DNA of 64,000 nucleotides from Acidimicrobiaceae bacterium (GCA_027341385.1 DAIEMC010000105.1:1249-65248), one strand, 5' to 3'; positions 12,496 to 64,000 are shown, counted from the first letter of the stretch. Notes: generated from the letters alone by a model not told the origin. Numbers and translations are program-made.

Positions 12496-12523
12496 TCAAG
12501 ATTGCTGGCACGACCGCCGAAAT
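12496..12523 (+). promoter_or_regulatory. Sigma-28 (FliA/WhiG)-type promoter for the GGDEF gene
   Basis: TCAA(G) at 12496, 16-nt spacer, GCCGAAAT at 12516-12523. Confidence 0.55.
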
Positions 12524-12644
12524 TTCAGGGGAACGTGAGATTTGGAGTCTAGAGGGCAGCACAAGGAGCGTCCGATTGAACGCCTGCCGAGAGGCTCTTC
12601 CGAGCCGCCGGCCCTGCCCTCAGGTGGAAGCGGGTTTCTCAGTA

Positions 12645-13694
12645 ATGACCGACCGAGCACTACGACGTTGGCTGATGCGTGGCGGGGTTACGCGCTGGCT
12701 TTTCGACGCCCCGACCGCACTTCCGCTTTCGACGGGCTCGATGGGAATGTGGGCCGCCAGCCTATGCCTGACGGGTTCACTGCTGGGTCTCGTAGTCACC
12801 CTGCTCCTGCCACACGCCAGCCAGTACGGCCTGAATCTGGTGACGAACGGCCTGCTCAGCGCAGGCGGCATCTTCCTGACCTTCAAGGCCGACAAGATCG
12901 GCCGCGTCGGGGCGAACACGATCATGGCAGTGGGCACCTTCGCGATCACGCTTCAGGTGGCTACCGGCCATGGGATGGATCCGGCCATCCTTGCCTGCAT
13001 GCTCTACGCCTGGATCGCGGTCTATGTCTTCGCCTTCCTGTCGACGGTCGAGGCGATCGCACACATCGGGTTCATCGCGACCTGCTATACGCTGGCACTG
13101 GTGTTCGGCCAGAAGCCGAGCGCCCCCCTCGCGGACTGGGTACTGACCCTGGCGACAGTGCTTGTCACCTCGGGAGCAGTCGGGTATCTGAGCTATCAAC
13201 TGCGCAAGCAAGCCGTAACCGACAGCCTCACCGGCATCCCCAACCGCAAGGGTTGGGAAGTGGCCTTCGAAAGGGAGATGGCCCGCGCCAGGCGCAGCGG
13301 ATCCTCGTTCGTGATCGCAATCTTCGACCTCAACGACTTCAAGCAGATAAACGACCTTTACGGGCACAGCGTGGGAGATCGGGTGCTGGTGGAGACGGGC
13401 AAGGCACTGCGTGCGGCGCTGCGCCCCTACGACCTGGTGGTTCGCTGGGGTGGTGACGAGTTCGTGGTGCTTGCCCTGCTCAAGCATCCCGCGGATGGGG
13501 GCCCTCTGATCGACAGGCTGATGCGAAGCGTGAGAACCAACTCAGCCCTCAGTTGCGGCGCCGTGATCGCTTATCCGGGAACTGCGAACGCTCAGGAGCT
13601 CCTGGCGCGCGCCGACGAGGCTCTCTACCGGGCAAAGGAAAACCCAGAGATCGAATACCTTCTCGAGTCGGTTGGCGCCTCCGGACAGTCCTGA
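12645..13694 (+). CDS. Membrane-bound diguanylate cyclase (multi-TM N-terminus plus GGDEF)
   Basis: About 5-6 TM helices, then TDSLTGIPNR, DLNDFKQINDLYGHSVGD, RPYD I-site and RWGGDEF. Start moved from 12231, where the ORF overlaps cobD antisense. Confidence 0.9.
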   Translation: MTDRALRRWLMRGGVTRWLFDAPTALPLSTGSMGMWAASLCLTGSLLGLVVTLLLPHASQYGLNLVTNGLLSAGGIFLTFKADKIGRVGANTIMAVGTFAITLQVATGHGMDPAILACMLYAWIAVYVFAFLSTVEAIAHIGFIATCYTLALVFGQKPSAPLADWVLTLATVLVTSGAVGYLSYQLRKQAVTDSLTGIPNRKGWEVAFEREMARARRSGSSFVIAIFDLNDFKQINDLYGHSVGDRVLVETGKALRAALRPYDLVVRWGGDEFVVLALLKHPADGGPLIDRLMRSVRTNSALSCGAVIAYPGTANAQELLARADEALYRAKENPEIEYLLESVGASGQS

Positions 13695-14147
13695 AAGCCG
13701 GTTGAGCACCCAGGTCCCCACGCCTGGCAGGCGCCCCGCGCCGGATCCCGACGCGCGAGCCGCGCAAGGTCTTAGATCCCCGTCTTCCGTTGTCGTCATC
13801 GGACGGCGTTGCCTCCTCGGTCGCTTGGGCAGCGCGCGGGATCAACGGGCGCAATACCACTCCAATGCGTAACATGGTCACTTGTGCGAGCCTCCGCCTC
13901 AGACGGGGATCCGACCGCAGGGCCCAAGGCGCCGACGGCCACCGGTGTTTTCGGAGATTCGAGCAGCCATGCGCGAATCGGGCTCGGCCGAGCTGACTGG
14001 CAAGCCGGCCACAGCGCCGAGCCGCCCATTGGGCCGACCGGTGGATCCCGGGCATAGCAGCGACCGGGGCGACACAGGCAATTGCACAAGGGCGGCTTCG
14101 AGGCCGAATCCCCCAAGAGGCAACCGAACAGAGGGAGGAGTGAGGTC

Positions 14148-15041
14148 TTGGGCATCTCTGACGGCGTGGGCTTCGATGACGGCAAGGTGGCCGAATACGC
14201 CCGATCACTTGGACTGCCGGGTTTGATCGATATTCACGTCCACTTCATGCCGGACAACGTGATGCGCAAGGTTTGGGCCTACTTCGAGAGCGCCGGGCCC
14301 CTGATCGGTTCAAGCTGGCCCGTTGCCTACAGGCTTCCCGAAGAAGACCGCTTGGAGCTGCTGGAATCTTTCGGAGTCCTCCGCCACGGCGCCCTCAACT
14401 ACCCTCACAAGCCCGGCATGGCAGAATGGCTCAACCAATGGAGCGCGGGCTTCGCGGAGACACATCCCAAAAGCTTCCGGTGCGCAACGTTCTACCCCGA
14501 ACCCTCGGCGGAACGCTACGTGCGCGATGCGATCGAGCGGGGAGCGCAGCTATTCAAGGCGCACATCCAAGTCGGGGCATACGATCCGCGCGATGCCCGG
14601 CTCAAGCCCGTCTGGGGCATGCTCGCCGAGGCGGGCATCCCGGTGGTGACTCACTGCGGATCCGGGCCAACTCCTGGCGCCTATACCGGTGTTGGGCCAA
14701 TCAGCGAGGTGCTGGCCGCCAATCCGGGGCTGGCGATGATCGTGGCCCACCTGGGCAACCCCGACTACGAGGAGTTCCTAGACCTCGCCGAGCGCCACCC
14801 GAAGGTCCATCTCGACACGACGATGACCTTCACGCCCTTCACCGAAAGCCAGGCCCCCTTTCCGCGCAGGCTCATCCCGCGCCTGGTCGAGCTCGGCGAT
14901 CGAATACTGCTCGGCAGCGACTTCCCGAACATCCCATACCGGTACTCGGTTCAAATCGCATCCCTGGCGGAATTGGGACTTGGCGACGACTGGATGCGTG
15001 GGGTTTTGTACTCGAACGCCGCGCGCCTAATGGGCCTGTAG
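14148..15041 (+). CDS. Amidohydrolase_2 family metal-dependent hydrolase
   Basis: IDIHVHF, VTHCGSGP, IVAHLG, LLGSDFP; TTG start after AGGAG. Confidence 0.85.
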   Translation: MGISDGVGFDDGKVAEYARSLGLPGLIDIHVHFMPDNVMRKVWAYFESAGPLIGSSWPVAYRLPEEDRLELLESFGVLRHGALNYPHKPGMAEWLNQWSAGFAETHPKSFRCATFYPEPSAERYVRDAIERGAQLFKAHIQVGAYDPRDARLKPVWGMLAEAGIPVVTHCGSGPTPGAYTGVGPISEVLAANPGLAMIVAHLGNPDYEEFLDLAERHPKVHLDTTMTFTPFTESQAPFPRRLIPRLVELGDRILLGSDFPNIPYRYSVQIASLAELGLGDDWMRGVLYSNAARLMGL

Positions 15042-15144
15042 GCAAGTCGTCCGGCTCCCGGGCGCACGCACCGGGCTTTTCCTGCTGGCTGGGATAAGAT
15101 CTCCTACTGATTTGGTCATATCCCAGCCCGGCCAAGGAGTGAGA

Positions 15145-15912
15145 TTGGATCGCTCAAGCCCGCTTCCGCTGTGGGCACAGCTTCTAGAGGATCTGCGAGA
15201 GCGGATAAACGCCGGCGAGTTCGCAGAGCGATTCCCGACCGATAAGGAAATGATCGAGCAGTATCAGGTCTCCCGCCAGACCGTGCGCGAAGCCGTTCGC
15301 CGTCTCGAGCAGGACGGCGTAGTGGTGCGGCGCCGGGGTCGAGGAACCAACCTCACCGACAAGCGCTTCTACCAGCAGCTGGGAACTGTCTACTCCCTCT
15401 ATCGCGAACTCGAGAAGATGGGGCATGTTCAAGGCTCGAAGATCCTGGCCCAGGGAACCAAGCATGACGGCGCCCTGGCACGCGAGTTCGGGGTTCCGGA
15501 GGACCATCTCTTCTTCCACCTGGAACGAATCCGGTACGCCGATGGCGAGGCGGTTGCCATCGACCGCCTCGTGATGCCGATGAAGTTCGCGGCGGCTCTC
15601 GCAGAAGCGAACTTTGAACACACCGGCCTCTACGACGAACTGGAGCGGCGCGCCGGAATCGTGCCGACGACGGGCGAGGAGCGCCTTACCCCGGTGATCC
15701 TTTCGGCAGAGGAGGCAAGTCTGCTCAACTGCAACGAGCCGACTGCCGGCATGCGCATCCAGCGGACCACCTACTACGGCGGCGAGAAACTGGAAAAGCG
15801 CGAGACCGTCGTCCGAGGCGATCGCTACTGCTTCGTCTCAGTCTTCGACTCGTCAAAGAACGAGCAATCATCGAACATCACCGCCGCCGAGTACGACGCG
15901 CGACAGCCTTGA
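15145..15912 (+). CDS. GntR (HutC/UTRA) family transcriptional regulator
   Basis: PLWAQL...VSRQTVREAVRRL..DG.V.RRRGRGT plus UTRA domain; TTG start after AGGAG. Confidence 0.9.
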   Translation: MDRSSPLPLWAQLLEDLRERINAGEFAERFPTDKEMIEQYQVSRQTVREAVRRLEQDGVVVRRRGRGTNLTDKRFYQQLGTVYSLYRELEKMGHVQGSKILAQGTKHDGALAREFGVPEDHLFFHLERIRYADGEAVAIDRLVMPMKFAAALAEANFEHTGLYDELERRAGIVPTTGEERLTPVILSAEEASLLNCNEPTAGMRIQRTTYYGGEKLEKRETVVRGDRYCFVSVFDSSKNEQSSNITAAEYDARQP

Positions 15913-15924
15913 TCGGTACAGCCG

Positions 15925-16779
15925 TCACAGTTGCCCGAAGGCCTCGGAGTTCTCCACGTATCTTTGCATCCGCGCACGCCCCCGCTGACCCAGTTCGGCT
16001 GTAACCAACGTGATCATCGCCTCGACGATTGCGATGGTTGGCACCATGCTGGAGAACTGGGACGGCCCGCCGATCGAGGCGTGAAAGACAATCTCCGCGT
16101 GCCCCGCGGCCGGCGACAGGTACGGATCGGTCAGGACGATCGCGGTCGAACCTTGCTGAGACGCCATCCTGACGAAGGTGACCGTATCGGCTTGATAGCG
16201 ACGGAAGTCGAACGCCACCACCACGTCCCCTTTCCCCGCGTCGAGGAGGGCGTTGATCCGCTCGGCGATGCCCTCGCTGACGTAGAGGACGTTCGGCCGC
16301 AGCACCTGCAGCGACCAGGCCAAGTGCTTGGCGAGGGCGGAGGAGATTCTCCCCCCGATCACGAAGACCCGTCGCTTGGGATCCGCGAGCAGCCGCACCG
16401 CCTTGGCAAACTCGGCCTGATCCACCGAGGCCAGGGAGCGCATCATCCCTTCAGTCATGGTGTTGGCCATATCCATCAGCCCCGATGACTCCAAGGAGAG
16501 AGGCTGTATCTCCGTAGGCGGCAGAAGGCGTTCCTGCAGCTCTCTTTGCAGAGCAGACTTGAAGGACGCGAAGCCGTCAAAACCCAGCTTGGTGACCAGG
16601 CGGGTGATTGTCGGCTCGGAGACACCGGCCGACCGGGCGATGCTCGATATGTTGCCCAGGCCCGCCACCGGGTAGTTCGAAAGGAGCACCTCGGCGACCT
16701 TGAGCTCGGCCTTGGAGAGGCTGGAGCGCATCCGGTGCAGCGAGGTGGCAACCGTCGTCGGCGCGCTGTCGTCGATCAT
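15925..16779 (-). CDS. MurR/RpiR family regulator (HTH plus SIS)
   Basis: LSKAELKVAE...SSIARSAGVSEPTITRLVTKLGFDGF; SIS domain with VVVAFDFRRY, LTD...SP. Confidence 0.88.
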   Translation of the reverse strand: MIDDSAPTTVATSLHRMRSSLSKAELKVAEVLLSNYPVAGLGNISSIARSAGVSEPTITRLVTKLGFDGFASFKSALQRELQERLLPPTEIQPLSLESSGLMDMANTMTEGMMRSLASVDQAEFAKAVRLLADPKRRVFVIGGRISSALAKHLAWSLQVLRPNVLYVSEGIAERINALLDAGKGDVVVAFDFRRYQADTVTFVRMASQQGSTAIVLTDPYLSPAAGHAEIVFHASIGGPSQFSSMVPTIAIVEAMITLVTAELGQRGRARMQRYVENSEAFGQL

Positions 16780-16968
16780 GTATACCCCCGTCTTTCGCGC
16801 GCGGTCGCGCTCGGTGCCAAACATATTCCCACATGGGAATGGACTCTCCCGCACCGCAGCGCTTCTTGAAGCACTCCGACGCGGAGTACCCTGGGCAACA
16901 GCGGGACCACGAGCCGGATTACCCCGCCCCACGTAAGGACATTTACCATCCCCACTAAGCGTGAAAGC

Positions 16969-16993
16969 GTTGTAACATGGTTATGGCTACAAC
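16969..16993. promoter_or_regulatory. Inverted repeat GTTGTA-N13-TACAAC, candidate operator
   Basis: AT-richer patch in the divergent rpiR/puuD intergenic region. Confidence 0.45.
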
Positions 16994-17190
16994 CTGCCGG
17001 ACGCTTTCCGAAGAAGCCGGGCCCGCGGTGCGCTTGCCGAGCACCGGAGCGGCAGCGCTCAATACAGACTTCGGAGGCGCCGAGTATTGGTGCTGGCCGG
17101 CGCGTGTAGGCCCAAGGCACGGACCGGCCTCTGGGGTGCGACTTGGGCCAGGCGTGCGCGCCGGCTTTGCGGCGCCGACGGGGAGGAATC

Positions 17191-17898
17191 TTGAAGAGGA
17201 TCGGCATTACCTTCGGACTTGCGGTCGACCACAAGTATTCCCTGCATATGGGCTACCCAGGCGCGATTTTGGAGCTTGGCGGCATACCGATGATGTATGT
17301 AAGCGTCACCGCCACACCCACGTTGTCGCATCATTCGGACCTCACTCTCGACGCGCTGGTCAAGGAATTCGTCTCGGAGGTTGACGGGCTCCTGGTCTCC
17401 GGCGGTTGGGATGTCGAACCTGCCCAATACGGACAGGTTCCCCAGCCCGAGTTGGAGGCGACCGAACCGGTCCGGGACTTCTTCGAGGCGGCAATGATAG
17501 ACGAGGCCCGCCGACAAGGAAAAAAAGTCCTTGCAATCTGCCGCGGAATGCAGATCCTGAACGTCTCCATGGGCGGCACCCTGTACCAGGATCTGGTCGC
17601 AGCCGGCTTTGAGCAACACCAAAGGCTCGACCGTGAGTACGAAACCTGCCACAGCGTGATCTTCGAACCCGGTTCGGAGCTTGCCGGGCTGATGGAGGGG
17701 GCCACCGAGGTCAACACGATTCACCATCAGGGAATCGACCGCCTGGCCGACGGGCTTCGCGCGGTTGCGCACTCGCCGGACGGCGTCATCGAAGCCGTCG
17801 AAGGCGATGGCCTGCTCGGGATCCAATGGCATCCGGAGCGCTTGTACGAATCCGATCCGCGGCACCTGGCCGGCTTCCGCTGGCTCATGGCCGACTGA
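17191..17898 (+). CDS. Gamma-glutamyl-gamma-aminobutyrate hydrolase family (peptidase C26, PuuD-like)
   Basis: GLLVSGGWDVEP..YG, VLAICRGMQILNV, VNTIHHQGI, GIQWHPE; TTG start after GGAGG. Confidence 0.88.
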   Translation: MKRIGITFGLAVDHKYSLHMGYPGAILELGGIPMMYVSVTATPTLSHHSDLTLDALVKEFVSEVDGLLVSGGWDVEPAQYGQVPQPELEATEPVRDFFEAAMIDEARRQGKKVLAICRGMQILNVSMGGTLYQDLVAAGFEQHQRLDREYETCHSVIFEPGSELAGLMEGATEVNTIHHQGIDRLADGLRAVAHSPDGVIEAVEGDGLLGIQWHPERLYESDPRHLAGFRWLMAD

Positions 17899-18000
17899 AC
17901 CGGACGCGCCGGCGACAATTCGCCAAAGCGCCCCCAAAAGCACTCGCCGCTAAGCGAAACTTGTAGCCGGGCAGGTGACACCTGTCGAGGAATCTGGCGA

Positions 18001-19617
18001 GTGGCAACGGGGGAACAGATGGCCATCATGGATGCGCAGTTGAACACGTGGCGACTGCTGGCTCACGCCGACAGCCACTTCGGCGACGTGGAAATCGTCA
18101 CCGAGGAGTCTCCCGGTTCCAAGCATCGCTACACCTTTGCCGACTTCGCGCAACGGACGCGCGCGCTGATGAACGTGCTTGATGGTATGAACCTGTCTCC
18201 TGAGGCCAAGGTCGCGACGCTTTCGTTCAACACCTACCGGCATCTCGAGTGCTACTTCGCCATACCCTGCACGGGCCGCGTCCTGCACACCCTCAACGCC
18301 AGGCTTTCGCCGGAAGATCTGTCGTTCATAATCAACGACGCCCAGGACGAGGCGATCTTCGTGGCTCATGACCTGCTGCCGCTGCTGGAGCGCATCGCGG
18401 ATCAAATACCTTCGGTAAAGGCGATCGTGGTCATGGGGGGCGATGCGGTCCAAGATGGCGACGGTCGGCTTGGTTATGAGGCCCTGCTTGCACGGAATCC
18501 CGGACAGTACCCGGAGAGGGCGATAGACGAGAACACCCCCGCCGGCCTCTGCTACACCTCCGGGACCACAGGGCGCCCCAAGGGAGCCGTTTACACCCAT
18601 CGGTCCACCTATCTGCACGCGATCAACTGCGCCTCTCCTTCCGGGATGAGCATCTGCGCGTCGGACTGCGTGCTCCCGGTCGTGACCATGTTCCACGCCT
18701 CCGCCTGGGGTATCGTGCACGCCGCCATTGCCACCGGGGCAAAGATCGTCTTCGCCTATCCGCACCTTGATCCCAAGTCCTTCGTGGATCTGCTCTTCGA
18801 CGAAGGTGTGACCATGGCGGCAGGTGTGCCGACCGTCTGGATAAGCATCGAGGAGGAGCTGCGCTCCCGCGGCGTCCGGCCACCCATGTTGCGCGAGATC
18901 GTGAGCGGGGGTTCGCAGCCGCCAAAGCCGCTGATAGAGCGCTACCAGCGCGATCTCGGCATCTCCATTGCCCAGGCGTGGGGAATGACCGAGACGTCGC
19001 CATTGGCAAGCGTGGCGCGGCCCAAGCACTCGATGCTCAAGCTTTCGGCCGACGAGTTGCTGGACCGCGTCGGGAGCCAGGCCGGCCTTCCGGCCCCGGG
19101 GATCGACGTGAGCCTGCGCGACGACGACGGCAACGAGGTTCCTTGGGACGGTGCGACCATGGGCAACCTTTACGTAAGGGGCCCTTGGGTGATCGACTCC
19201 TACCTGCACGGCCGTGGCGCGGACTCCTTCGAGGGCGGATGGTTCAAGACCGGGGACGTCGCGATCGGCTCGCCCGACGGCTATTTCGTGATCGCCGACC
19301 GCACCAAAGACCTCATCAAGTCCGGTGGGGAATGGATCTCCTCGGTAGACCTCGAAGGCGCGCTGATGGGCATGCCGGGGGTGGTCGAGGCCGCCGTGGT
19401 GGCCATACCTGACGACAAGTGGCAGGAACGGCCCCTCGCTTGCGTAGTCCCGGCGACGGGCAGCGAGATCACCCTCGAGGCTGTGAGGGCGCACCTCGCC
19501 GCGCGCGGCTTCGCCAAGTGGCAGCTTCCGGAGAGGATCGAGATCATCGATCAGGTGCCAAGAACGAGCGTCGGAAAGTTCGACAAGAAGGCGCTTCGGG
19601 CCAAGTTCCCGCAATAG
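18001..19617 (+). CDS. Medium/long-chain fatty acid-CoA ligase (AlkK/DmdB-like)
   Basis: CYTSGTTGRPKG, QAWGMTETSP, WFKTGDV, DRTKDLIKSGGEWISS, GKFDKK. Confidence 0.92.
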   Translation: MATGEQMAIMDAQLNTWRLLAHADSHFGDVEIVTEESPGSKHRYTFADFAQRTRALMNVLDGMNLSPEAKVATLSFNTYRHLECYFAIPCTGRVLHTLNARLSPEDLSFIINDAQDEAIFVAHDLLPLLERIADQIPSVKAIVVMGGDAVQDGDGRLGYEALLARNPGQYPERAIDENTPAGLCYTSGTTGRPKGAVYTHRSTYLHAINCASPSGMSICASDCVLPVVTMFHASAWGIVHAAIATGAKIVFAYPHLDPKSFVDLLFDEGVTMAAGVPTVWISIEEELRSRGVRPPMLREIVSGGSQPPKPLIERYQRDLGISIAQAWGMTETSPLASVARPKHSMLKLSADELLDRVGSQAGLPAPGIDVSLRDDDGNEVPWDGATMGNLYVRGPWVIDSYLHGRGADSFEGGWFKTGDVAIGSPDGYFVIADRTKDLIKSGGEWISSVDLEGALMGMPGVVEAAVVAIPDDKWQERPLACVVPATGSEITLEAVRAHLAARGFAKWQLPERIEIIDQVPRTSVGKFDKKALRAKFPQ

Positions 19618-19662
19618 GGCCGCATCGACGGCGGCCCGCCTCTTCAATTAGCCTGGGAGCCG

Positions 19663-21284: not shown

Positions 21285-21315
21285 CGCTCGCTCCTCGAAA
21301 GGCGCAGGCTTGCTC

Positions 21316-21789: not shown

Positions 21790-21951
21790 GACCTCAGCGA
21801 TACCTTTCGCGGACTCCCGCACGAGCTTCGCGGCTACCCAATAGGGAGCCGGACCGCTTTATGCTAACCCTAGGCGTCCTGTGCCAACCCGTCGCATGCC
21901 ACGGTAAACAGGCGCGCCCATCGCAAGTTCAAATTGGAGATTCGGAAGATA

Positions 21952-24192: not shown

Positions 24193-24201
24193 CCAGGCCG
24201 T

Positions 24202-32480: not shown

Positions 32481-32819
32481 CTACTCTTCGCGCTTGCGCG
32501 CAGACTCGCTGAGCCTTTCGAAGAACGAGCCGTCGGCCAATTCGTAGTGGAACTGCATCAGCTCGTCGTAGGAGATCGGCTCGCCGGCGTGCACTTCCTC
32601 GAGTTCCGCAGGCATTCGCCAGAAGCTGAGGGCGACCCCCGCCGACACCAGGATGTCCACCACCGCCTTCTCGGCCGGCTTGGAGACCCGGACAGCGCAG
32701 CCCGGGCAGCGAAAGTTATAGGAGGCCTGCCCATCGCTCGAGCAGACGAGCACCCGAATCTCTTCCAGAGTCAGCTCGACATCCCCACAGGTCGGGCAGC
32801 TCGCCTTGATCAGCGGCAT
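32481..32819 (-). CDS. Small putative Zn-binding hypothetical protein
   Basis: IKASCPTCGDVEL...Y.FRCPGC (two CxxC). Confidence 0.7.
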   Translation of the reverse strand: MPLIKASCPTCGDVELTLEEIRVLVCSSDGQASYNFRCPGCAVRVSKPAEKAVVDILVSAGVALSFWRMPAELEEVHAGEPISYDELMQFHYELADGSFFERLSESARKREE

Positions 32820-32926
32820 CAGGAGTCCTTTCCATGCCCTGCATCCCAAGAGGCGGTGCAGGCAGCCACTTGCCGTCATTAACTCATCGACACTCTTAGT
32901 GAGCGACTTGAGGACGGTGTGGCGGG

Positions 32927-48568: not shown

Positions 48569-49683
48569 AAGAAGCACGCATGAACGGCGGCACTCGGGCT
48601 TCCAGCAACAACCGGTCCCGATTCGAGGTAAAGCCGCACGAGTCGACCCTTCTGCAGGATGAGTTGGCGGCCCTGATCGAGAAGATGGCCCCGCTTCAAA
48701 ACAAGGACCTTGTCACACAGCTGCTGAACGTCGTCGTCAACTTCGCCAGCGCCGACTTGGACCGGCTGGACCTGAAGATCGCCACCGGCGCGCTCACCGA
48801 GATGCACCAGGCCTTCACCACCTTCCAGCCCTGGGCCGGACGCCGCAAACTGACCATCTTCGGCTCAGCGCGCACGCAGGAAGGCCATCCCGACTACCTG
48901 GCCACCGTGGAAGTGGCCAAGGCGATGCGCGAACGCGGATGGATGATCATCACCGGCGCCGGGCCCGGCATCATGGCGGCGGGCATCGAAGGCGCCGGGC
49001 GCGAAAACTCCTTCGGAGTGAACATAAAGCTGCCCTTCGAGCAACGGCCGAACCTCTTCATCGAAGAGGACCCCAAGCTCGTGGAGATGAAGTACTTCTT
49101 CACCCGCAAGCTGATCTTCACCCGCGAATCGCAGGCCTTCCTGGTACTTCCCGGCGGCTTCGGAACCATGGACGAGGCATTCGAACTGCTCACGCTGATG
49201 CAGACCGGCAAGTCCCAGCCCGCGCCCATCGTGCTCTACTCCGCGCCCGAGAACACCTTCTGGAAAGAGTGGGAGGTTTTCATGCGGGACAGGCTCTTCG
49301 AGGGAGGCTACGTCAGCGGAGAGGACGAAAGCCTCTTTCTCATCACCTCCGATCTCGAGGAGGCCGTGACCGAGTTCGAGAGCTTCTACTCGAACTTCGA
49401 CTCGCTGCGCTGGGTGGGAGATCTGCTGGTGCTGAGGGTGAGGCAAGGCCCCACGGAAGAGGAGCTCGAAATGCTCAACCGGCGCTACGGGCGGATCTGC
49501 TCCTCGGGCACCATCGAGGCGATCCCGATCACCGGCGCCGAGAAGGGCGACAAGGACGGCCTCGACCTCCAACGCGTCGCGCTCCGCTTCGACCGATCCT
49601 CCCACGGCGCCCTGCGTCGGCTCATCGACGACCTCAACAACCTTTCAAGACCGCCCTCGGGGGAGTCGATAACACAGGGGTGA
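48565..49683 (+). CDS. LOG/TIGR00730 family nucleotide phosphoribohydrolase with N- and C-terminal extensions
   Basis: TIFGSART, ITGAGPGIM.AG, KYFFTRK, PGGFGTMDE. Confidence 0.88.
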   Translation: MKEARMNGGTRASSNNRSRFEVKPHESTLLQDELAALIEKMAPLQNKDLVTQLLNVVVNFASADLDRLDLKIATGALTEMHQAFTTFQPWAGRRKLTIFGSARTQEGHPDYLATVEVAKAMRERGWMIITGAGPGIMAAGIEGAGRENSFGVNIKLPFEQRPNLFIEEDPKLVEMKYFFTRKLIFTRESQAFLVLPGGFGTMDEAFELLTLMQTGKSQPAPIVLYSAPENTFWKEWEVFMRDRLFEGGYVSGEDESLFLITSDLEEAVTEFESFYSNFDSLRWVGDLLVLRVRQGPTEEELEMLNRRYGRICSSGTIEAIPITGAEKGDKDGLDLQRVALRFDRSSHGALRRLIDDLNNLSRPPSGESITQG

Positions 49684-50299
49684 GAACCTGTCAGTCCTGC
49701 GGCCTGCCGGCCGCCGCATCCGTGACCCGCTGCGCGTTCTGCGGCAAGGAGCTTCACGGGACCGGAAGCTACGAGCTGATCCCCCGCTCCACGCACTTCG
49801 CTTTCAGCGCACCCGGCGCGGCGCTCGCGGACGCGAGGCTGGAAGGCGGCGTCTGGCGCATCTACGAACGCGGTTCCACCGAGCCTCGCCTCTCCTTGCT
49901 CCCCATGCTCCGTCACGGCCGCTACAGCGTTGCGCTCCTGGACGAGGGGATGGCACGGGCCGCCACGGTGGTAGTGCGCACGCGCGTCGAGCCGGGATCC
50001 CCGGAACGCCTGCTGGCCGCGGTAAACGACGACGTCCGCACTTCTCTCGTGATATACACCGACGGCCCACCGGCCTGCACATGGTGAACCGTCTCGGCGA
50101 CGTCGTCGCGCTTGCATCGCCCAAGCCCGGTGGCGCCATGTCCGGCCTGGACATCGTCTCCATGGGCTCCGACCGCCTGGCCGAGCCGGCCCAGCTGTTC
50201 GGAATCTTCCTCTCCCTGATCCTGGCGCGGGTGGCCCACCCGGGATGTACCTTCAGCGACCTCGACCACATCTGCCTGGACGCATCCAGCGAGAGCTGA
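49680..50299 (+). pseudogene. Zn-ribbon hypothetical protein split by a probable 1-nt frameshift near 50066
   Basis: CQSC..CAFC N-terminus; one extra C in GGCCC gives ...TDGPTGLHMVNRLGDVV..., joining 49680-50087 and 50081-50299. Confidence 0.5.
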
Positions 50300-54378: not shown

Positions 54379-54411
54379 GAGTATTAAATGAAAATTAGAG
54401 TGTTCTTAGAA
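54379..54411 (-). promoter_or_regulatory. Three 11-bp-phased direct repeats, candidate OmpR-family box
   Basis: Minus strand TTCTAAGAACA/CTCTAATTTTC/ATTTAATACTC, upstream of the Ser-rich/HK/RR operon. Confidence 0.5.
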
Positions 54412-54419
54412 CGAGGGCC

Positions 54420-55415: not shown

Positions 55416-55598
55416 GGGGCGGTGACCTCCGATCGAAGAAGCGAAGAGCAGGGGGCCGGCGCCTGCGGCGCACCCTCCGCCTCCATCCTTGCACACCTTC
55501 CCGCTTTCCGGGAGCCCGAAACCTCCCGCCCCTTTGCCCCGGCCGCCGCTGCCCGGATAGGCTCAGCAGTTCATAGACCGCTTCATGGGGAGCACACG

Positions 55599-56597: not shown

Positions 56598-56601
56598 GGC
56601 C

Positions 56602-57360
56602 TCAGCCGACCAGCTTCTCCACCAAGGTGGCCAGATCGTCCGTGACGTGGGCGACAGCATCCTCGAGAGTCGGCGTGTCCTTGGTGACGCCCGACATCAC
56701 CAGAGCGAAATCGCATCCCAACTGCCGCGCAAAGGCTCCGTCCGTCTCCAGGCGATCGCCGACCATCAGGGTCGGCTCACCGACCAGGTTCCTGACCGCG
56801 GCGGCCATGGGCGCCTCGGGCTTTCCGGCCCAGATGGGCGCGACCCCGCCCGCGGCGATCACCGCCGCGATGATCGAACCGGCGCCGGGCAAGGGACCCT
56901 GCGGGGTCGGGTAGATGGGGTCGGAGTTGGTGGCCACCAGGCGGGCGCCCTTGGTGCGCAGCGCGCGCGTGGCCCGAGCCAGCTTGGAGTAGCTGATCTC
57001 CCGGTCCCAGCCCGCGACCACCACGTCGACGTCGGAGCTGTCCACAACCTCCACGCCGCGTTCGCCGAGGGCCTCGATGACCCCGGCGCCGCCGATCACA
57101 TAGGCACGTTCGCCCGGCTCCAAAAGGCTCGCCGCCGCGCCGGCGGAGCTCACCAGCCTGGTGCGCGCCGAGTCGACGCCGATTCGCTCCAGCTTTGCCG
57201 AGTACTCTGCTCGAGTGAGCAGCCCGTTGTTGGTCGCGAAGGTCACCTCCACGCCGGCCTCAAGGAGACGCGCGACCGCCTCCACCGAACCGCCGATGGG
57301 GTCGTCCATCAGCCACAGGACCCCGTCCAAGTCGATTACCCAGCTTTGACGCGTGCTCAA
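56602..57360 (-). CDS. HAD-IIA (NagD-like) hydrolase
   Basis: IDLDGVLW, ATNN, ATNSD, GKP, MVGDRLETD, VMSGVT. Confidence 0.9.
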   Translation of the reverse strand: MSTRQSWVIDLDGVLWLMDDPIGGSVEAVARLLEAGVEVTFATNNGLLTRAEYSAKLERIGVDSARTRLVSSAGAAASLLEPGERAYVIGGAGVIEALGERGVEVVDSSDVDVVVAGWDREISYSKLARATRALRTKGARLVATNSDPIYPTPQGPLPGAGSIIAAVIAAGGVAPIWAGKPEAPMAAAVRNLVGEPTLMVGDRLETDGAFARQLGCDFALVMSGVTKDTPTLEDAVAHVTDDLATLVEKLVG

Positions 57361-57449
57361 AGATCCTCCCCGGACGCACATAGATGCAAGGTTCAATTCT
57401 ATAGATCGCGCCCGGCCGCACCTGAAGTGCGCCGTAGATTGGGGGTGCG

Positions 57450-58424
57450 ATGCACACTTTCAGGGACTTCCGCGCATTGCGCGTCGACACCGAGGTGGTC
57501 GGCTCGATAGAGGAGTTGCGCGCCGGAAACTTCGGACCGGAACATCTGGTCGAGGACGAGGAGTCCGGCTTCTACCTCTATGAAATGGCCCGCTGGTCCG
57601 AGAGCGGCCAACCCCTCCGCGTCGTCGGCGCGATCGGGGTCCTCTCCCTCGGGTCCGCCGGAGCATCCGGCACGGTCGGCCACGCGGCATGGAGGTCCGC
57701 TGCGGTGGATCCCGGCGGCCGGGCCGCGAGCGAGGCCCCATGGGCAATAGTCGAAACGGACGTCATCGATCAGGTCAACCCCTATCGGATAGGACCCATC
57801 GCGCGGATAAGCGACACCGAAGGGGTGGCTCACCGGATCTACGCCCTGGTGCAGCCGGCCGCCATCGAGATGGTCCGCCGCGCTGTCGAGGAATCCCCGT
57901 CGGCACTTATCGGCCCTGTGCCCGGCCTCCCGGAGGGGAGCGACGCATGGGAGACACTCGTCTTTGTCTGCCAGGCCAAGGATCTCCCGGCCCTCGTGAA
58001 GCCGGTTCACCGTCTCTTCCACGGCCCCGGAGCCGGCCGGGCCTTTGACGAGCTGGCGGCCCGATTCGCGATTCGAACCGAGCCCCCGGCCGAGGCACAC
58101 TTGACCCTGCACTGCGCCGGGCGCCGGGCATTCATGCCGGTAGGCGAAAGCGTCTCGGATGCGGTCGGCAAGGTGGAGGCCCACTTCGGGTGGAGTGGGG
58201 AGATAAGTATGGAGCGCACAACGGACGCCCATCTCATCGAAATCGAGTCAGGATTCCCGGACGTGGTCGGCATGACCTGCCCGGCTCTTCCCGTGGACGA
58301 GCTCCTCGCCTCCGCGCGCCAAGGTCGCCAACCGGAGACTCTGGGCGCCCTCTTCCATCCCCGGCCTCTCACCTCCCTCGTTCTGGGCGAGGCAACCGGG
58401 CCGGACGAAGCTCAGCGGGCGTGA
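57450..58424 (+). CDS. Degenerate DUF1015-like protein
   Basis: F..FRALR.D start, FYLYE, GVLSL, PVHRL, LFHPRPLTSLV C-terminus; shorter than typical and lacks ADGHHR. Confidence 0.5.
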   Translation: MHTFRDFRALRVDTEVVGSIEELRAGNFGPEHLVEDEESGFYLYEMARWSESGQPLRVVGAIGVLSLGSAGASGTVGHAAWRSAAVDPGGRAASEAPWAIVETDVIDQVNPYRIGPIARISDTEGVAHRIYALVQPAAIEMVRRAVEESPSALIGPVPGLPEGSDAWETLVFVCQAKDLPALVKPVHRLFHGPGAGRAFDELAARFAIRTEPPAEAHLTLHCAGRRAFMPVGESVSDAVGKVEAHFGWSGEISMERTTDAHLIEIESGFPDVVGMTCPALPVDELLASARQGRQPETLGALFHPRPLTSLVLGEATGPDEAQRA

Positions 58425-59182
58425 AGGTTCTGGTAAAGAAGAACCAGGCCGATGACGGTGCCATAGCCGATGACCAGCCCGCGCAGCAGGCCGGCCGGCA
58501 TTCGCCTGGCCACCTTGGCGCCGGCAAGCCCGCCAAAGAGGAACCCTCCGGCCATAACCACCACGCTCAGGTAGGAGACGTGCGCGAAGACAATGAAGAC
58601 CAGGTCGCCCGCGGTCGCGATGACCAAGGAGAGCGTCACCTTGACGGCATTGTGCTCCTGGAGGCTGCCCTCGGCAAAGATGGAGAGCAGGGCGAGGAGG
58701 ATGATCCCCAACCCCGCGCCGAAGTACGAGCCGTAGACCGCCGCGATCCCCACCGCCGCGATGAGCCCGACTTCGGACCCCTCCTTTCGGCGCAGCAGGG
58801 CGAAGAAGGCACCCACGTGGCTCCGGAACGCAAGCAGTGCGCAACTGCCCAGCACCAGGAAGGGCACGACGGCCTTGAAGACCGAAGCGGGCGAGAGCAG
58901 CAGCACGGCCGTTCCCACTAGCGAGCCGAAGATGGCCGCGATGCCGGTATGAACGATCTTGGTGCGCTGGTGGCCGAGGAGCTGCCTATAGCCGAGTGTC
59001 CCTCCCAGATAGCCGGGCCAGGATGCCACCGAGTTGGTCACGTTGGCGACAACCGGCGGCAGGCCAACAGCCAAAAGGGCCGGGAAGGAGATGAGCGAGC
59101 CCCCTCCCGCCACGGAGTTGACCGCGCCGGCCAGTATCGCCGCGCCCACCAGAAAGAGCAGCTGGGCCAGGTGAAGACTCAC
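58412..59182 (-). CDS. TauE/SafE family permease
   Basis: AGAVNSVAGGGSLISFPALL, ANVTNS, YGSYFGAGLGI. Confidence 0.9.
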   Translation of the reverse strand: MSLHLAQLLFLVGAAILAGAVNSVAGGGSLISFPALLAVGLPPVVANVTNSVASWPGYLGGTLGYRQLLGHQRTKIVHTGIAAIFGSLVGTAVLLLSPASVFKAVVPFLVLGSCALLAFRSHVGAFFALLRRKEGSEVGLIAAVGIAAVYGSYFGAGLGIILLALLSIFAEGSLQEHNAVKVTLSLVIATAGDLVFIVFAHVSYLSVVVMAGGFLFGGLAGAKVARRMPAGLLRGLVIGYGTVIGLVLLYQNLHAR

Positions 59183-59215
59183 CTGGCCCGCTCGGAATTC
59201 GCAGAGGGCGCCCCG

Positions 59216-60271
59216 CTAGGCAATGTCGATGGCTGAATCGAGGTAGACGTCCTGCACGGCATTCAGCAGAGCCACACCTTCCTCGCGCGGACGCTGGAAC
59301 GCCTTGCGCCCGACTATGAGGCCGGCTCCACCTGCGCGCTTGTTCACCACTGCGGTGCGGACGGCATCGGCCATGTCGCTCGCGCCCTTGGATTCGCCCC
59401 CGGAGTTGATGAGCCCGATGCGGCCCGAGTAGCAGTTGATCACCTGCCAACGGGTCATGTCGATCGGGTGATCGGTGGTGAGCCTCTCGTACACCAACGG
59501 ATCGGTGCGGCCGAAGTTGAGCTTTATGTAGCCGCCGTTGTTCTCGGGAAGCTTCTGCTTGATCACGTCGGCCTCGATGGTCACGCCAAGGTGATTGGCC
59601 TGGCCGGTGAGGTCCGCGGAAACGTGGTAGTCGGCCTCGGCGGTCTTGAAGGCCGGGTTGCGCAGGTAGCACCAGAGGATGGTGAACATTCCCAGGCGGT
59701 GCGCCTCCGCAAAGGCGGCGGACACCTCCTGGATCTGGCGCGTGGCGCCCGCGGAGCCGAAGTAAATTGTCGCCCCGATTCCCGCGGCTCCCAGATCCCA
59801 AGCCTGGCGCACCTGGCCAAACATGATCTGGTCGGCATTGGCCGGGTAGGTGAGAAGCTCGTTGTGGTTGAGCTTGACGATCATCGGGATCCTGTGCGCG
59901 TATTTGCGCGAGATTATCCCGAGGCCGCCAAGGGTGGTCGTAACGCCCGAGCAGCCCGCCTCGACGGCCAGCTCGACGATCTCCTGGGGATCGAAATATG
60001 CGGGGTTCTTGGCGAAGCTGGCTGCGCCGGAATGCTCTATCCCCTGGTCGACCGGGAGAATCGAGAGGTACCCGGTGTCAGCCAGCCTCCCGTGCCCGTA
60101 GAGGGACTGCAGCGAGCGCATCACCTGAGGATTGCGATCCGAGTAGGCGAAGATCTCGTCGACCACCGCCGGACCCGGATGATGCAGGCTCTCCTTGGGT
60201 ATGCCGACGCACCTGTGATTCAACAGCGACTCGGCCTGAGCGCCCAAGAGGGCTTCGATATCGGTTGCCAT
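59216..60271 (-). CDS. fbaB: Class I (DhnA-type) fructose-bisphosphate aldolase
   Basis: [51 protein letters not shown]. Confidence 0.95.
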
Positions 60272-60336
60272 CGCATGCTCCTTCGGGGAAATCGCGCGGT
60301 GGCGCGGCCACGTGCCGCGCCGTTGACGATAAGACC

Positions 60337-61809
60337 CTAGCGCAGATCAGCGAGGCGCTCGGCGACGTCGTAGAGGCTGGGATCCTCTTTGGCGACCAGC
60401 GAAAAGAGCCTGCGGGCATGCTCGATCTCGCCGACCTTCTCGTACAAGTCCCCGAGCATGTACCACTGGCGCAACTCGATGAGGCGCGGCTTGGTGCGGT
60501 TCGGCTTCTCGAAGCGCGACAGCAGTTTGATCGCCTCCGCATACTCCTTCTGGTCCGAGAGCGAGCCGGCGTACACGATGCGAGCCTCGGCCATCACCTC
60601 CGCTGAAGGCGAGAGACGGCCCACTTCCTCGTATATCTCCTTAACCCGGTCATGCCTTCCCAGCGCCCGGTAGCAGTCGGCCATCACCGGCCCCTGGTCG
60701 AGGGATCCGGTGGCTTCGGAGGCGGCTTCGAGATACCCGATGGCGGCGCGCCAGTTGCCCAACCGGTAGTGAGTCAGCCCCAACAGTTCCGTGATGCTCG
60801 GAGAGGTCTCCGCATAACGCATGGCGATGTCGAGGTGGCGCTTTGCATCCCGGTAGCGGTCCGCCTCATAGGCCTGGATCGCCTCGGTCAGCTCACGGCG
60901 CAGCGCCTCGGTCCGGTAGGCGGACAACCCTTTGGGGACTTCGTCACGCAGAATCGAATCCACCGAGTAGCCGGTCCGGTCCCGACGACGGGGCCGCGCC
61001 TTGGCAATCGCTCCTTCGGCCTTGGGCTCGGCCACCCATGCGTCGATGGGCGCCGCGCCGGTATGGCGGCGTTCGTCGTCCTCGCCTTGAACTGGCTTGC
61101 GGGCACCTTCGAAGGGCCGGATCTTAGCGGCGCCTTTGGAGGTGAGTGCTCCCCACCCCTTGCGCTGGACGTTGTGGCGCGGCGTAGGCTGCCCCTTGCC
61201 GCCTTCCCTCCGTGGCTCACCGTCGCGAGGACGCCGTGGCCTCCCCTGTCCGGAGCGAGGGGCAAAGCCGTCTCCCCGGCCGCGCTCGGCCCCGAATCCG
61301 GATCCCGGCACGTAGGGCCGGCGCTTAGGCCCGCGGTCCTCGTAGCGCTCAGCCCCGTAGTCCTCTTCATAACGCCGCTCGCCGCGCTCGTAACCGCCGC
61401 CGCGCTCCTCATGCTGCCCGTATCCGCGTCCTCCGCGGCCCTGGTAGCCACCGGACTCGCGCGGGCGATAGGGGCGCTCGCCGCCTTCGCCACGACGCTC
61501 GAAGTTGCGTCCGCCTCCGGTGCGGGGGCGGAACTCACGATTGGGGCGGTCCTGGTATCCGGACTCGCCTCTGCCACGGCGCTCGCCTTCGTAGCCACCG
61601 GACTCGCGCGGGCGATAGGGGCGTTCGCCGCCTTCACCACGGCGCTCGAAGCTGCGACCCTGCCCACGCTGGGGGCGACCCTGGTAACCGGATTCGCTCC
61701 GGCCACGGCGCTCGCCCTCGTAGCCTCCCGACTCACGGGGGCGATAGGCGCGCTTATCCCCGGGTGCGCGCCCGTGCTCCTGGCTCGACCCTGCTGAAGA
61801 ATCTTCCAC
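60337..61809 (-). CDS. TPR protein with long R/G/E-rich repetitive N-terminus
   Basis: C-terminal TPR helices ([34 protein letters not shown]); GTG start after GGAG. Confidence 0.8.
61444..61750. repeat. Imperfect coding tandem duplications in the TPR N-terminus
   Basis: 61444-61504 vs 61591-61651 (first 33 bp identical, 147 bp apart); 61552-61596 vs 61681-61725 (129 bp apart). Confidence 0.8.
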
Positions 61810-61947
61810 TACCACTCCAAACCTCATTGACCAACGGAGCGGAGCAACGCAATCGCTGCGCCTTGCAGAAAGACTGGACTTCTCTCGCGCCGGGCAAACT
61901 AGGTCATTCTAGTCGCGGGAATGGCGGCCGTCGTTTGACCGGCCTCC

Positions 61948-62442
61948 TTAGGCTCGTATCTCGTCGAGGGCTCCGGTGGTCACGTTGTACATGAAAGCTC
62001 GGATGAGCGTATCCGGCTTCAGGAAAGGACTCTTGCGCAGATGCGCGACGGTGCGCTCAACGTTGGCGCCTCTGTCCTCGAAGCCGACGCCATCCCAGGC
62101 CGGCCTAGATCCGAGCTCCTCATCAAGTTCCAGCACAAAGGACTCCACGTCGAGCTTCATCATGCCACAGTCGGTGTGATGGACAATAAAGATCTTGTCT
62201 GTGCCCATAGCCCTCTGGGAGATCGCGATTGACCTTATCACGTCGTCGGTAGCCGCCCCACCCGCATTCCTCACGACATGCGCATCGCCTTCGCGCAGTC
62301 CGAACAGGCCAAAAACGTCGATCCTGGAATCCATGCATGCCAGAACCACCAGCCCTAGCCTCGGCTCAAGTGCCAGCTTTGACCTGTCGAATGACCCGCA
62401 ATAACCCTGCGCGTTGGCCAACAATTGGTCTATTCCATTCAG
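61948..62442 (-). CDS. Beta-class carbonic anhydrase (small D-clade type)
   Basis: LACMDSRID, RNAGG, HHTDCG. Start ambiguous: TTG at 62424 or CTG at 62442. Confidence 0.9.
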   Translation of the reverse strand: MNGIDQLLANAQGYCGSFDRSKLALEPRLGLVVLACMDSRIDVFGLFGLREGDAHVVRNAGGAATDDVIRSIAISQRAMGTDKIFIVHHTDCGMMKLDVESFVLELDEELGSRPAWDGVGFEDRGANVERTVAHLRKSPFLKPDTLIRAFMYNVTTGALDEIRA

Positions 62443-62727
62443 AGCACACCCCCAGCTGCGACAGAATCGAGGAAAGCGCGCTGCACCACCGTGCCACCGG
62501 ATGACCTCTCCGGCTCAAGCTCACTGGCCTAGCCTGAGCAGCCTAGCAGGCGGCGCGAGTGCGGGGCATGCAGCGCTCCGGGCCAAACCCCTACCAAAAG
62601 CCCACCACTCGGGGGGACTCCATCTGGCCCGGTGCGCTCGGCCTCAGCGCGGAAACTCCGGCACCACAGAAGGAGCAATCGAAAATAGTCCTACAACACA
62701 ATCCATCACCTATAAGCATCCGTTGGC

Positions 62728-62755
62728 TAAACTCCTGCTATCGAGGTGCCGATGA
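62728..62755 (+). promoter_or_regulatory. Sigma-28 (WhiG/FliA)-type promoter
   Basis: (C)TAAA-N16-GCCGATGA upstream of the pilin gene. Confidence 0.65.
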
Positions 62756-62988
62756 CAGACTTAGTTGGTGGAAGGGGCAGTACGGCCGTGTCCACATGGC
62801 AAGGATCATCTGACCGCAATTGCGGCAAGAGATCCCGCTTGGGGGACCGGGACGGGCTGGTCGGAGGCGCGGCGCCTGAAAATGTCGGCCAATCCAGCAC
62901 TTCCCGCGAAAACAACAGGCCGTGAGGCACGCTTGAGCCGTCACCGAGCTTGCGGAATTTGCCAGGCATTGGACCTGGGAGGGATTTG

Positions 62989-64000
62989 ATGCGCACACCC
63001 AGGACGCGCATGAAAGGCGAAGACGGCCTAAGCATCATAGGTGTTGTCATCGCAAGCTTCATCCTGATTTTGGCACTCATTCCGGCAGCCCGATTCATTG
63101 AGAGCACCCTCGGAGTTTCGGGCGGCAATCAGCGCCGTATAGTCGCCGCTAACATAGCCGCGGGCCAGCTTGAGGCCCTCAGGCTGCAGGCGAGCAGGTC
63201 ATTCACCCAACTGGTCGCCGCATCGCTTGGACTGACCAACGGCTCCTCGACTGTCAATGGAGTTCAGTACTCTATTCAGACCCGGCTCGCGTGGACGAGC
63301 GGAACGTTTTCTTCCGGCAGTTGCAACACCCAGGCCGCCTCCAAGACATACAACCAGCCGGTCGTCGAGGCGCAGGTAACGGTCGGATGGCCAAACCAGG
63401 GTGGTCTCCCGTCCGTTGTTGCGACCACCGTTCTCGCACCCCCGGTGGGGGCCTACTCAAATACAAGCGGGAACCTGTTGGTATCGGTGACCAACGCGGC
63501 CAATCAGGGTTCTCAAAATATTGCTGTCACACTCGTCTCTTCTTCGGGAACCACTACCACCTATTTCACGGACGCGGGTGGCTGCGCCTTCTTCCCGTTT
63601 CAGACTCCGGGAACCTACACGGTGGAACTTCAATCCTCACTGAACCCGGGCTATGTCGACAATCACGACAACGCCAGCCCTTCCCAGACGGTTGGAATCG
63701 CCCTCGGGAACACCACCACTGCACAGTTCCAATACGACCAGGCCGCCACCATCCAGCTCTCGGCTGCGGCAACCCAAGTATCCCAGCTCTTCGGGTTCAC
63801 GGCCGCCAATCCCTCCCTTACCCCGGTAGGGACCGCCACCTTCACGGCAACCGGAAGCAGCGGCGCTTCGCTATTCCCGTTCACCGCGGGCTACAGCGTT
63901 TGGCTCGGTACCTGCTTTGAGCTAAGCGGCTCGCCACAGTACCCCACAGGCGATCCGACGACGCCTGTCTCGGTCTCGCCGGCTGGCACGTCTACTGCCG
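62989..64000 (+). CDS. Type IV pilin-like protein with large extracellular beta-rich C-terminus (runs off window end)
   Basis: Manual translation MRTPRTRMKGEDG|LSIIGVVIASFILILALIP...; open to 64000; GGGAGG RBS; TDAGGCAFF...PGTYTV carboxypeptidase-regulatory-like segment. Missing from the ORF track because no stop is in the window. Confidence 0.8.
   Translation, partial: MRTPRTRMKGEDGLSIIGVVIASFILILALIPAARFIESTLGVSGGNQRRIVAANIAAGQLEALRLQASRSFTQLVAASLGLTNGSSTVNGVQYSIQTRLAWTSGTFSSGSCNTQAASKTYNQPVVEAQVTVGWPNQGGLPSVVATTVLAPPVGAYSNTSGNLLVSVTNAANQGSQNIAVTLVSSSGTTTTYFTDAGGCAFFPFQTPGTYTVELQSSLNPGYVDNHDNASPSQTVGIALGNTTTAQFQYDQAATIQLSAAATQVSQLFGFTAANPSLTPVGTATFTATGSSGASLFPFTAGYSVWLGTCFELSGSPQYPTGDPTTPVSVSPAGTSTA

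Follow-up and report, generated by a model that had tools for sequence, protein, structure and literature searches.

The question raised by this locus is whether two short motifs, far apart on one piece of DNA, are promoters of a common regulon, and if so which sigma factor reads them. The DNA is a 64,000-nucleotide (nt) stretch from an Acidimicrobiaceae bacterium (GCA_027341385.1, DAIEMC010000105.1:1249-65248), referred to below as the window. Matches to T[AC]AA-N16-GCCGA start at 12496, before a gene for a GGDEF-domain diguanylate cyclase, and at 62728, before a pilin-like gene. An earlier, sequence-only reading of the window proposed that both are promoters for a WhiG-like sigma-28 factor which is inhibited by the anti-sigma RsiG in a cyclic di-GMP (c-di-GMP)-dependent way and which drives type IV pili and its own cyclase. 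From the whole genome, that of an uncultured Acidithrix, and from those of its relatives, we conclude that the two sites quite probably belong to a motility regulon governed by WhiG, RsiG and c-di-GMP, which can be read from its conserved sigma-28 promoters.

The two sites and the genes behind them are as follows, in window coordinates.

12496-12523, plus strand: sigma-28/WhiG-type promoter, cTCAAG-N15-GCCGAAAT, an exact match, before the GGDEF gene
12645-13694, plus strand: membrane diguanylate cyclase, 349 amino acids (aa) (PF00990, 124.7 bits; TIGR00254, 120.5 bits)
62728-62755, plus strand: sigma-28/WhiG-type promoter, cTAAAC-N15-GCCGATGA, an exact match, before a minor-pilin-like operon
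62989-64284 (running past the window end at 64000), plus strand: operon gene 1, atypical prepilin-like, 431 aa from the ATG at 62989
64265-64915, plus strand: operon gene 2, a pilin with G|LTLVELLVA (N_methyl, 19 bits, below the cut-off of 21.2)
64988-66808, plus strand: operon gene 3, PilX-like, with 5S and 23S rRNA beyond

Both motifs lie where they had been reported, each before the kind of gene named. At the first site, TCAA occupies 12496-12499 and the -10 box GCCGAAAT occupies 12516-12523, with a position weight matrix (PWM) score of 21.7. The site is within a divergent intergenic region (12425-12644), flanked on its other side by a CobD/CbiB-like gene (11432-12424, minus strand), and the ATG of the membrane GGDEF protein at 12645 is 121 nt on. 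Transcription is expected to start near 12530, which would give a leader of ~115 nt. In the cyclase a multi-pass domain forms the N terminus, and the translation shows the GGDEF motif intact together with an RxxD I-site (RPYD-LVVRW-GGDEF). At the second site, which is within a long intergenic region 3' of a beta-carbonic-anhydrase gene, TAAA occupies 62728-62731 and the -10 box GCCGATGA occupies 62748-62755; the ATG at 62989 is 233 nt on, and transcription is expected to start near 62762. The window holds five matches to the pattern compared with 0.73 expected, a count that no shuffle out of 100 attained.

The gene behind the second site had been taken for a type IV pilin. It does open an operon of pilin-like genes; its own cleavage site, G|LSIIG, has Gly in place of Glu at +5 and no Pfam pilin match was found for it, so that it is better described as minor-pilin-like than as a canonical pilin, and the major pilins are encoded elsewhere. 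Genes 1 and 3 of the operon have in common with pilins a hydrophobic N-terminal segment only, and gene 1 would be 424 aa long if it started at the ATG at 63010.

Comparison with related genomes showed that both motifs are conserved and, at the level of sequence, genuine promoters of sigma-28 (WhiG) type. The pilin-operon promoter is kept in 12 of 12 genomes, with boxes that are constant and spacers that vary. The family's 11 orthologous pilin loci, spread over six genera, all have T[AC]AA-N16-G/A[CTA]CGA[ATC] at 62-97 nt before the start of the alignment; N16 occurs in nine of the 11 upstream regions, compared with at most one for any other spacer. In these relatives an ATG or GTG follows the -10 octamer by 5-8 nt, which, as at the Zn-ribbon genes described below, is the layout of a leaderless mRNA. 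The cyclase promoter is kept in 7 of 12 genomes. Four cyclase orthologues (84-89% identity) have TCAAG-N15-GCCGA[AC]AT at -154 to -174 (-149 in the present genome), again with differing spacers, and two at 57% identity have TAAAG-N15-CCCGAAGT; more distant orthologues have none. A related promoter, T[ACT]AAG-N15/16-NNCGA, is found 100-137 nt upstream of flagellin in 13 of 13 flagellated genomes of the family.

The motif was next counted over the whole assembly (2.9 Mb in 189 contigs, 65.6% G+C, 94.8% complete), for which a gene caller trained on the genome's own codon usage gave 2656 genes and 88% coding DNA. Matches were classed as promoter-placed if they were intergenic and were followed, within 300 nt on the same strand, by the start of a gene. 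T[AC]AA-N16-GCCGA gave 31 intergenic and 19 promoter-placed matches, compared with 1-6 promoter-placed matches for each of the other spacers from 8 to 25 (Poisson p ~1.6e-9); total counts per spacer track codon periodicity. Positions left free in the search also fit the sigma-28 consensus, with G after the -35 box (+4) at 14 of 20 sites (p = 7e-4), A or T after GCCGA at 17 of 20 (p = 5e-6) and A at the next position at 13 of 20 (p = 3e-6). A two-block weight matrix gave 25 matches with a score of at least 18, of which 24 were intergenic in this 88% coding genome; the share is in part circular, since the intergenic sites had served to train the matrix. The sites have the parts of a sigma-28 promoter: a -35 box T(A/C)AA, a 16-nt spacer and a -10 box GCCGATAA with its central CGA, placed upstream of a gene.

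Genes for c-di-GMP enzymes are strongly over-represented behind these promoters. GGDEF/EAL genes follow 8 of 20 promoter-placed exact matches, although only ~21 such genes occur among the 2656 (Fisher p = 4e-13; the ~21 were counted by jackhmmer, and the eight targets were confirmed by Pfam), and two more GGDEF genes, on contigs C99 and C6, have near-matches. This promoter type precedes about half of all GGDEF/EAL genes in the genome. The enrichment before pilus and c-di-GMP genes that the sequence-only reading had proposed to look for was strong, specific to N16 and located before GGDEF/EAL genes. The putative targets outside the pilin operon are listed below by kind.

c-di-GMP targets, GGDEF side: the window GGDEF protein, a GAF-GAF-GGDEF protein and a degenerate GGDEF protein
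c-di-GMP targets with EAL: GGDEF-EAL, two GAF-EAL, EAL-HDOD, and a glycosyltransferase-2 fused to EAL
flagellar targets: flhA, the fliM-fliR operon (spacer N15) and flgN-flgK-flgL
flgB and flagellin: both with a TCCGA -10 box
chemotaxis target: cheA (spacer N15)
other targets: UDP-glucose dehydrogenase, a CBM2 protein and a SpoIID-domain protein

Flagellin and FlgL were detected and flagellar clusters are present on contigs C118 and C52, so the organism is evidently flagellated. Because flagellar and chemotaxis operons carry the promoter, the regulon is one of motility and not of pili only. The interval from 12496 to 64000, which had been put forward as the span of the regulon, turned out to be mostly housekeeping DNA (transaldolase, PGI, FO synthase, LOG, arginase and others).

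The window itself holds two further sites of this kind. When the -10 box was widened to GTCGA, as found in the pilin promoters of relatives, a second scan gave two extra sites, and both are conserved.

32884-32911, minus strand: sigma-28-type promoter, cTCAAG-N15-GTCGATGA, from the GTCGA scan and conservation
32481-32819, minus strand: Zn-ribbon protein, 112 aa (CxxC...CxxC), from the translation, with orthologues across the order
49645-49672, plus strand: sigma-28-type promoter, tTCAAG-N15-GTCGATAA, with a GTG at 49680, 7 nt on
49680-50299, plus strand: ~206-aa protein whose N-terminal Zn ribbon is joined to a beta-rich body, from its own sequence compared with relatives

The first of these was missed in the earlier reading because its -10 box is GTCGA. 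It lies ~65 nt before the ATG at 32819, leaving a leader of ~58 nt followed by a Shine-Dalgarno site. It is kept as T[AC]AA-N16-G[TC]CGAT in 12 of 12 Acidithrix genomes, whose spacers diverge, and is also present in two further genomes, G012 (with N15) and G023 (from another family); the 32481-32819 gene is a candidate WhiG target. At the second site the -35 box reaches into the 3' end of a LOG-family gene, and the GTG only 7 nt downstream suggests a leaderless mRNA. Here TCAAG-N15-N[CT]CGATA, 7-8 nt and a GTG are kept in 12 of 12 Acidithrix genomes, with strongly varying spacers. Overall, the promoters of the two Zn-ribbon genes are kept in 12 of 12 and 14 of 16 genomes.

Searches of Pfam, NCBIfam and PDB sequences gave no relatives for either Zn-ribbon protein. 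An AlphaFold model of the 49680 protein, of moderate confidence (predicted local distance difference test score 62), gave as its best PDB fold match a weak one, 1zxu, Tubby-like/LURP-one (probability 1.00, E 6.6e-3, template modelling score 0.54). Nine relatives have this gene as a single open reading frame of 206-221 aa. The present assembly lacks 1 nt near 50068 (own GGCCCACCGG compared with GGCCC[T/G]ACCGG in relatives), which divides it into 49680-50087 and 50081-50299; either the assembly is wrong here or the gene has recently become a pseudogene.

The sigma and the anti-sigma factors predicted by the sequence-only reading were both found. It had stated that the window contains no sigma gene, and indeed none is present on the whole contig; the two genes are elsewhere in the assembly.

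contig C53, 6986-7759: whiG, the sole TIGR02479 match over the cut-off (263.6 compared with 189.6 bits)
contig C140, 17207-17791: RsiG, 194 aa, found with the regular expression ExxxSxxRxxxQxxxD

The sigma also passes the WhiG equivalog NF004935 (348.7 bits, cut-off 343) and matches Streptomyces venezuelae WhiG (6PFJ_A) with an E of 2.6e-85. Its best matches are in acid-mine-type metagenome-assembled genomes (96-97% identity), followed by Acidithrix ferrooxidans PY-F3 (79%) and Ferrithrix thermotolerans (65%), in keeping with an Acidithrix species of the class Acidimicrobiia, the class that the sequence-only reading had supposed. The gene lies between xerC and rpsB-tsf-pyrH-frr, the xerC...rpsB neighbourhood in which whiG is also found in Streptomyces. 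RsiG scores 58.3 bits on PF22802 (cut-off 27) and aligns over its full length with the S. venezuelae protein (6PFJ_T, E 2.9e-10, residues 17-174 on 19-175). Its motif 1, ETMVSYARRVVQGRLD, matches ExxxSxxRxxxQxxxD exactly.

A tree was built from all sigma-28 matches in 30 related genomes together with S. venezuelae WhiG. The sigma of this genome fell into a short-branch group with 6PFJ WhiG, from which a low-scoring clade (157-205 bits) was split off with 99/96 support. One copy in the low-scoring clade is on the flagellin contig of G029, ~14 kb from the flagellin genes, and members of this clade are the only sigma-28 copies in two genomes that lack RsiG. The label WhiG1 for the low-scoring clade rests on such proxies, because no named WhiG1 reference sequence was at hand. 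By its place in the tree the present sigma is assigned to the other, RsiG-regulated clade, WhiG2.

The same pairing recurs in the family. Among 19 of its genomes, 16 have exactly one high-scoring WhiG, 17 have RsiG and 14 have flagellin, and RsiG is nearly always found in genomes with a high-scoring WhiG. No genome of the family gave a second sigma-28 match (E <= 1e-40). In the order's other families WhiG and RsiG persist without flagellin, the exception being G029, with its added low-scoring paralogues.

Taken together, these results are best accounted for as follows. RNA polymerase loaded with WhiG would start at promoters of the form cT(C/A)AAG-N15-G(C/T)CGA(A/T)A. Within the window, the four conserved ones would serve the membrane diguanylate cyclase, the minor-pilin-like operon and the two small Zn-ribbon proteins, while elsewhere the same promoter would serve about half of the GGDEF/EAL genes, flhA, fliM, flgB, flgK/L, flagellin, cheA and genes of exopolysaccharide type. 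If the switch works as in Streptomyces and Rubrobacter, c-di-GMP-loaded RsiG would sequester WhiG, so that high c-di-GMP would shut off the flagellar, chemotaxis and pilus-tip genes. With both cyclases and phosphodiesterases as targets, WhiG activity may feed back on the c-di-GMP pool both ways. The negative feedback loop through its own cyclase that had been proposed for the sigma is therefore only half of the predicted wiring: the cyclase is indeed a predicted target, but EAL phosphodiesterases are predicted targets as often as cyclases are, so that the net feedback may be of either sign. We infer from sequence that this sigma uses the sites, as we do the start positions, the binding of RsiG to WhiG and the dependence on c-di-GMP.

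Several observations weigh against this account. Of the residues of WhiG that contact c-di-GMP, Lys57 and Arg62 are kept, but Gly61 is replaced by Ser; Gly61 contacts the c-di-GMP ribose, and a glycine there is regarded as sterically required (bioRxiv 10.64898/2026.01.14.699351). Of the five contacts in sigma-4 (T235, L236, Y239, E240 and L242), three are identical and two are changed (T235A and L242F). Motif 2 of RsiG, EGEISRWRKELFVAID, has Phe in place of Gln. Given Gly61Ser and the motif-2 Phe, c-di-GMP binding is at this stage only inferred. At 94.8% completeness, a second sigma-28 or a FlgM could sit in a gap of the assembly. The gene caller was home-made, which makes the distances to start codons approximate. 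The promoter of the pilin-like operon is far from its start codon in this genome, with a 233-nt leader found here only, while the relatives are leaderless. Upstream of pilB (after aroE, C94), pilB/pilC (C26) and pilT (C61) there was no match to T[ACT]AA-N15-17-NNCGA, pilB having only an isolated TCCGATAA, and the major pilin genes have weak matches only (TACGATTC and ACCGAAGT). The earlier proposal that the sigma drives pili fits the minor-pilin-like operon; it left out flagella and chemotaxis, and it does not extend to the pilus motor genes, which lack a clear site.

The substitutions in WhiG and RsiG leave some room for an alternative in which the sigma-28 promoters are real, but the sigma is an ordinary flagellar FliA, RsiG has another role or no longer binds in a c-di-GMP-dependent way, and the link to c-di-GMP is mere co-expression of GGDEF/EAL genes with motility genes. 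Sigma-28 control of c-di-GMP enzymes without RsiG is known in other bacteria, and the present organism is flagellated, with the motif at its flagellar operons. We nevertheless consider this alternative unlikely. RsiG is retained in 17 of the 19 family genomes, nearly always alongside a high-scoring WhiG, and its motif 1 is intact throughout. The substitutions are not peculiar to this genome: Phe or His stands in motif 2, with motif 1 intact, in all Acidimicrobiales examined, and G, S or A alternate at the position of Gly61 in Acidimicrobiales that all carry RsiG, so that these variants are order-wide and coexist with RsiG. FlgM, the alternative anti-sigma, was not detected in the genome at E <= 0.1, while control genomes gave matches. 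Finally, the sigma falls in the clade that has been shown to bind RsiG (bioRxiv 10.64898/2026.01.14.699351).

It is far less probable that a different sigma reads the sites. The nearest candidate is a divergent FliA/WhiG-like sigma on contig C51 (5104-5898), which has the next best TIGR02479 score after WhiG (125.9 bits). It was rejected as a second sigma-28, since it is below every curated cut-off and has a very long branch (5.4 changes per column). It also lies on a 7-kb contig with unrelated genes, and the sites are conserved in the family, yet no genome there has a second sigma-28 match at the threshold given above. That a pattern this short and degenerate simply turned up by chance at the two noted sites, in intergenic DNA richer in AT, as might be suggested by the nine bases it specifies, by the two of five window matches that are intragenic and by the unconserved intergenic match at 17059, is hardly credible in view of the enrichment at N16 alone, the fit of the free flanking positions, the boxes kept in 7 to 12 genomes per site while spacers diverge, and the functional enrichment.

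A motility regulon under WhiG, RsiG and c-di-GMP thus remains the preferred reading. A further claim, which we advance tentatively as a distinct possibility suggested by the genome census and the tree, is that Acidithrix and its family have no flagellar sigma-28 other than the RsiG-gated one of WhiG2 type.

The leader of the pilin-like operon and the third intergenic match are listed here.

62756-62988, plus strand: 233-nt leader with a Shine-Dalgarno sequence, GGGAGGG, at 62977-62983, from comparison of upstream sequences
17059-17086, plus strand: exact core match, TCAAT-N15-GCCGAGTA, intergenic, before a peptidase C26 gene

A riboswitch or other structured RNA was considered for the leader and rejected: there was no Rfam match (gathering score or E <= 1) and the fold z-score was -0.46. 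The leader is not repeated at any other place in the genome, and nothing similar was seen in relatives. The match at 17059 has poor flanking positions (T at +4, G at +25) and, as a candidate conserved promoter, was absent from all 11 orthologous upstream regions; it is probably due to chance or specific to this strain. The window matches at 9681 and 25366 are the intragenic ones. Upstream of the pilin promoter, a stretch of ~50 nt (62577-62632) recurs on contigs C106, C67 and C48 with 91-100% identity, and may be a small dispersed repeat. Directly beyond the pilin-like operon, at window coordinates 67062-68242, the minus strand encodes 5S rRNA and the 3' portion of 23S rRNA, and the contig (C82) ends inside this rRNA operon. 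More than 380 aa of the gene 1 product are Ser/Thr-rich, beta-type sequence with weak SdrD_B and Ig-like matches, and the protein could be a pilus-tip adhesin. Contig C151 (1-4698) carries divergent sigma-28-type promoters, with the CBM2 protein in one direction and the 1012-aa glycosyltransferase-2/EAL fusion in the other, a pair that possibly links exopolysaccharide synthesis to c-di-GMP degradation. Autoregulation was also considered and rejected, as there is no site before whiG or rsiG (best PWM scores below 1).

The closest known systems differ from the present one in several respects. In Rubrobacter, three pil transcription units and five genes for diguanylate cyclases or phosphodiesterases are transcribed from WhiG promoters TAAA-N16-GCCGATAA (Schumacher et al. 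2021, PMC8325347). The (RsiG)2-(c-di-GMP)2-WhiG system of Rubrobacter radiotolerans (PDB 7LQ2-7LQ4) resembles ours in belonging to a unicellular actinobacterium and in its consensus, its pilus and cyclase/phosphodiesterase targets and its RsiG. However, the RsiG described here appears to be of the twin-motif monomer type, with the change in motif 2 noted above, whereas that of Rubrobacter is a single-motif dimer. Flagella are present here, and the promoter is found at flagellar and chemotaxis operons; among the pilus genes, a clear site was seen at the minor-pilin operon and none at the motor cluster. The RsiG-(c-di-GMP)2-WhiG complex of S. venezuelae (6PFJ/6PFV) is similar in its WhiG, its RsiG, which aligns over the full length and is apparently of the same twin-motif type, and the residues K57 and R62. 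It differs in its regulon, which there comprises the sporulation genes whiH and whiI and here motility, pili and c-di-GMP enzymes, and in lacking the Gly61 to Ser and motif-2 Gln to Phe changes. The FliA/FlgM checkpoint of Salmonella and Bacillus shares the sigma-28 promoters before flagellin, hook-associated and chemotaxis genes, but here, with FlgM undetected, the candidate anti-sigma would be a c-di-GMP-binding RsiG.

The general design has already been published. Denis et al. (2026) searched the phylum for T(A/C)AA-N16-GCCGA and found genes for diguanylate cyclases and phosphodiesterases to be the most widespread predicted targets, for which feedback loops were proposed; pilus, flagellar and chemotaxis targets were also predicted phylum-wide, and flagella were tied to the WhiG1 clade, which does not bind RsiG (bioRxiv 10.64898/2026.01.14.699351). 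Our consensus and kinds of target are the same, but the family described here is flagellated and appears to have only the WhiG2-type sigma with RsiG. The sequence-only reading had supposed the system to be uncharacterised in Acidimicrobiia. This is so in that the main text of Denis et al. names none (bioRxiv 10.64898/2026.01.14.699351), but twin-motif RsiG in three of four Acidimicrobiales had already been published (PMC8325347). The present work extends a known actinobacterial switch to a new flagellated lineage and describes no new mechanism. What is new is a flagellated lineage whose RsiG-paired WhiG2-type sigma appears to be its only sigma-28, together with two conserved putative targets.

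In this lineage, then, the flagellar regulon seems to be under a WhiG2-type sigma regulated by RsiG instead of under WhiG1, which bears on how late flagellar genes are controlled in actinobacteria without FlgM, a question left by the phylum-wide study (bioRxiv 10.64898/2026.01.14.699351). Acidithrix are acidophilic iron oxidisers with filamentous growth and 'iron snow' aggregates (PMC5437920). The analysis supplies a concrete, testable list of promoters, including those of the two conserved Zn-ribbon targets and the glycosyltransferase-2/EAL fusion, and cultured relatives exist in A. ferrooxidans PY-F3 and Acidithrix sp. C25. If this sigma is indeed the only flagellar sigma-28 of the family, the two Zn-ribbon proteins driven by it would be new members of the motility circuit, and c-di-GMP, acting via the anti-sigma, would be a direct transcriptional off-switch for flagella, chemotaxis and pilus-tip proteins, covering at once half of the cell's c-di-GMP enzymes. 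The lineage would then be near the ancestral WhiG-RsiG switch, before the division of work between WhiG1 and WhiG2.

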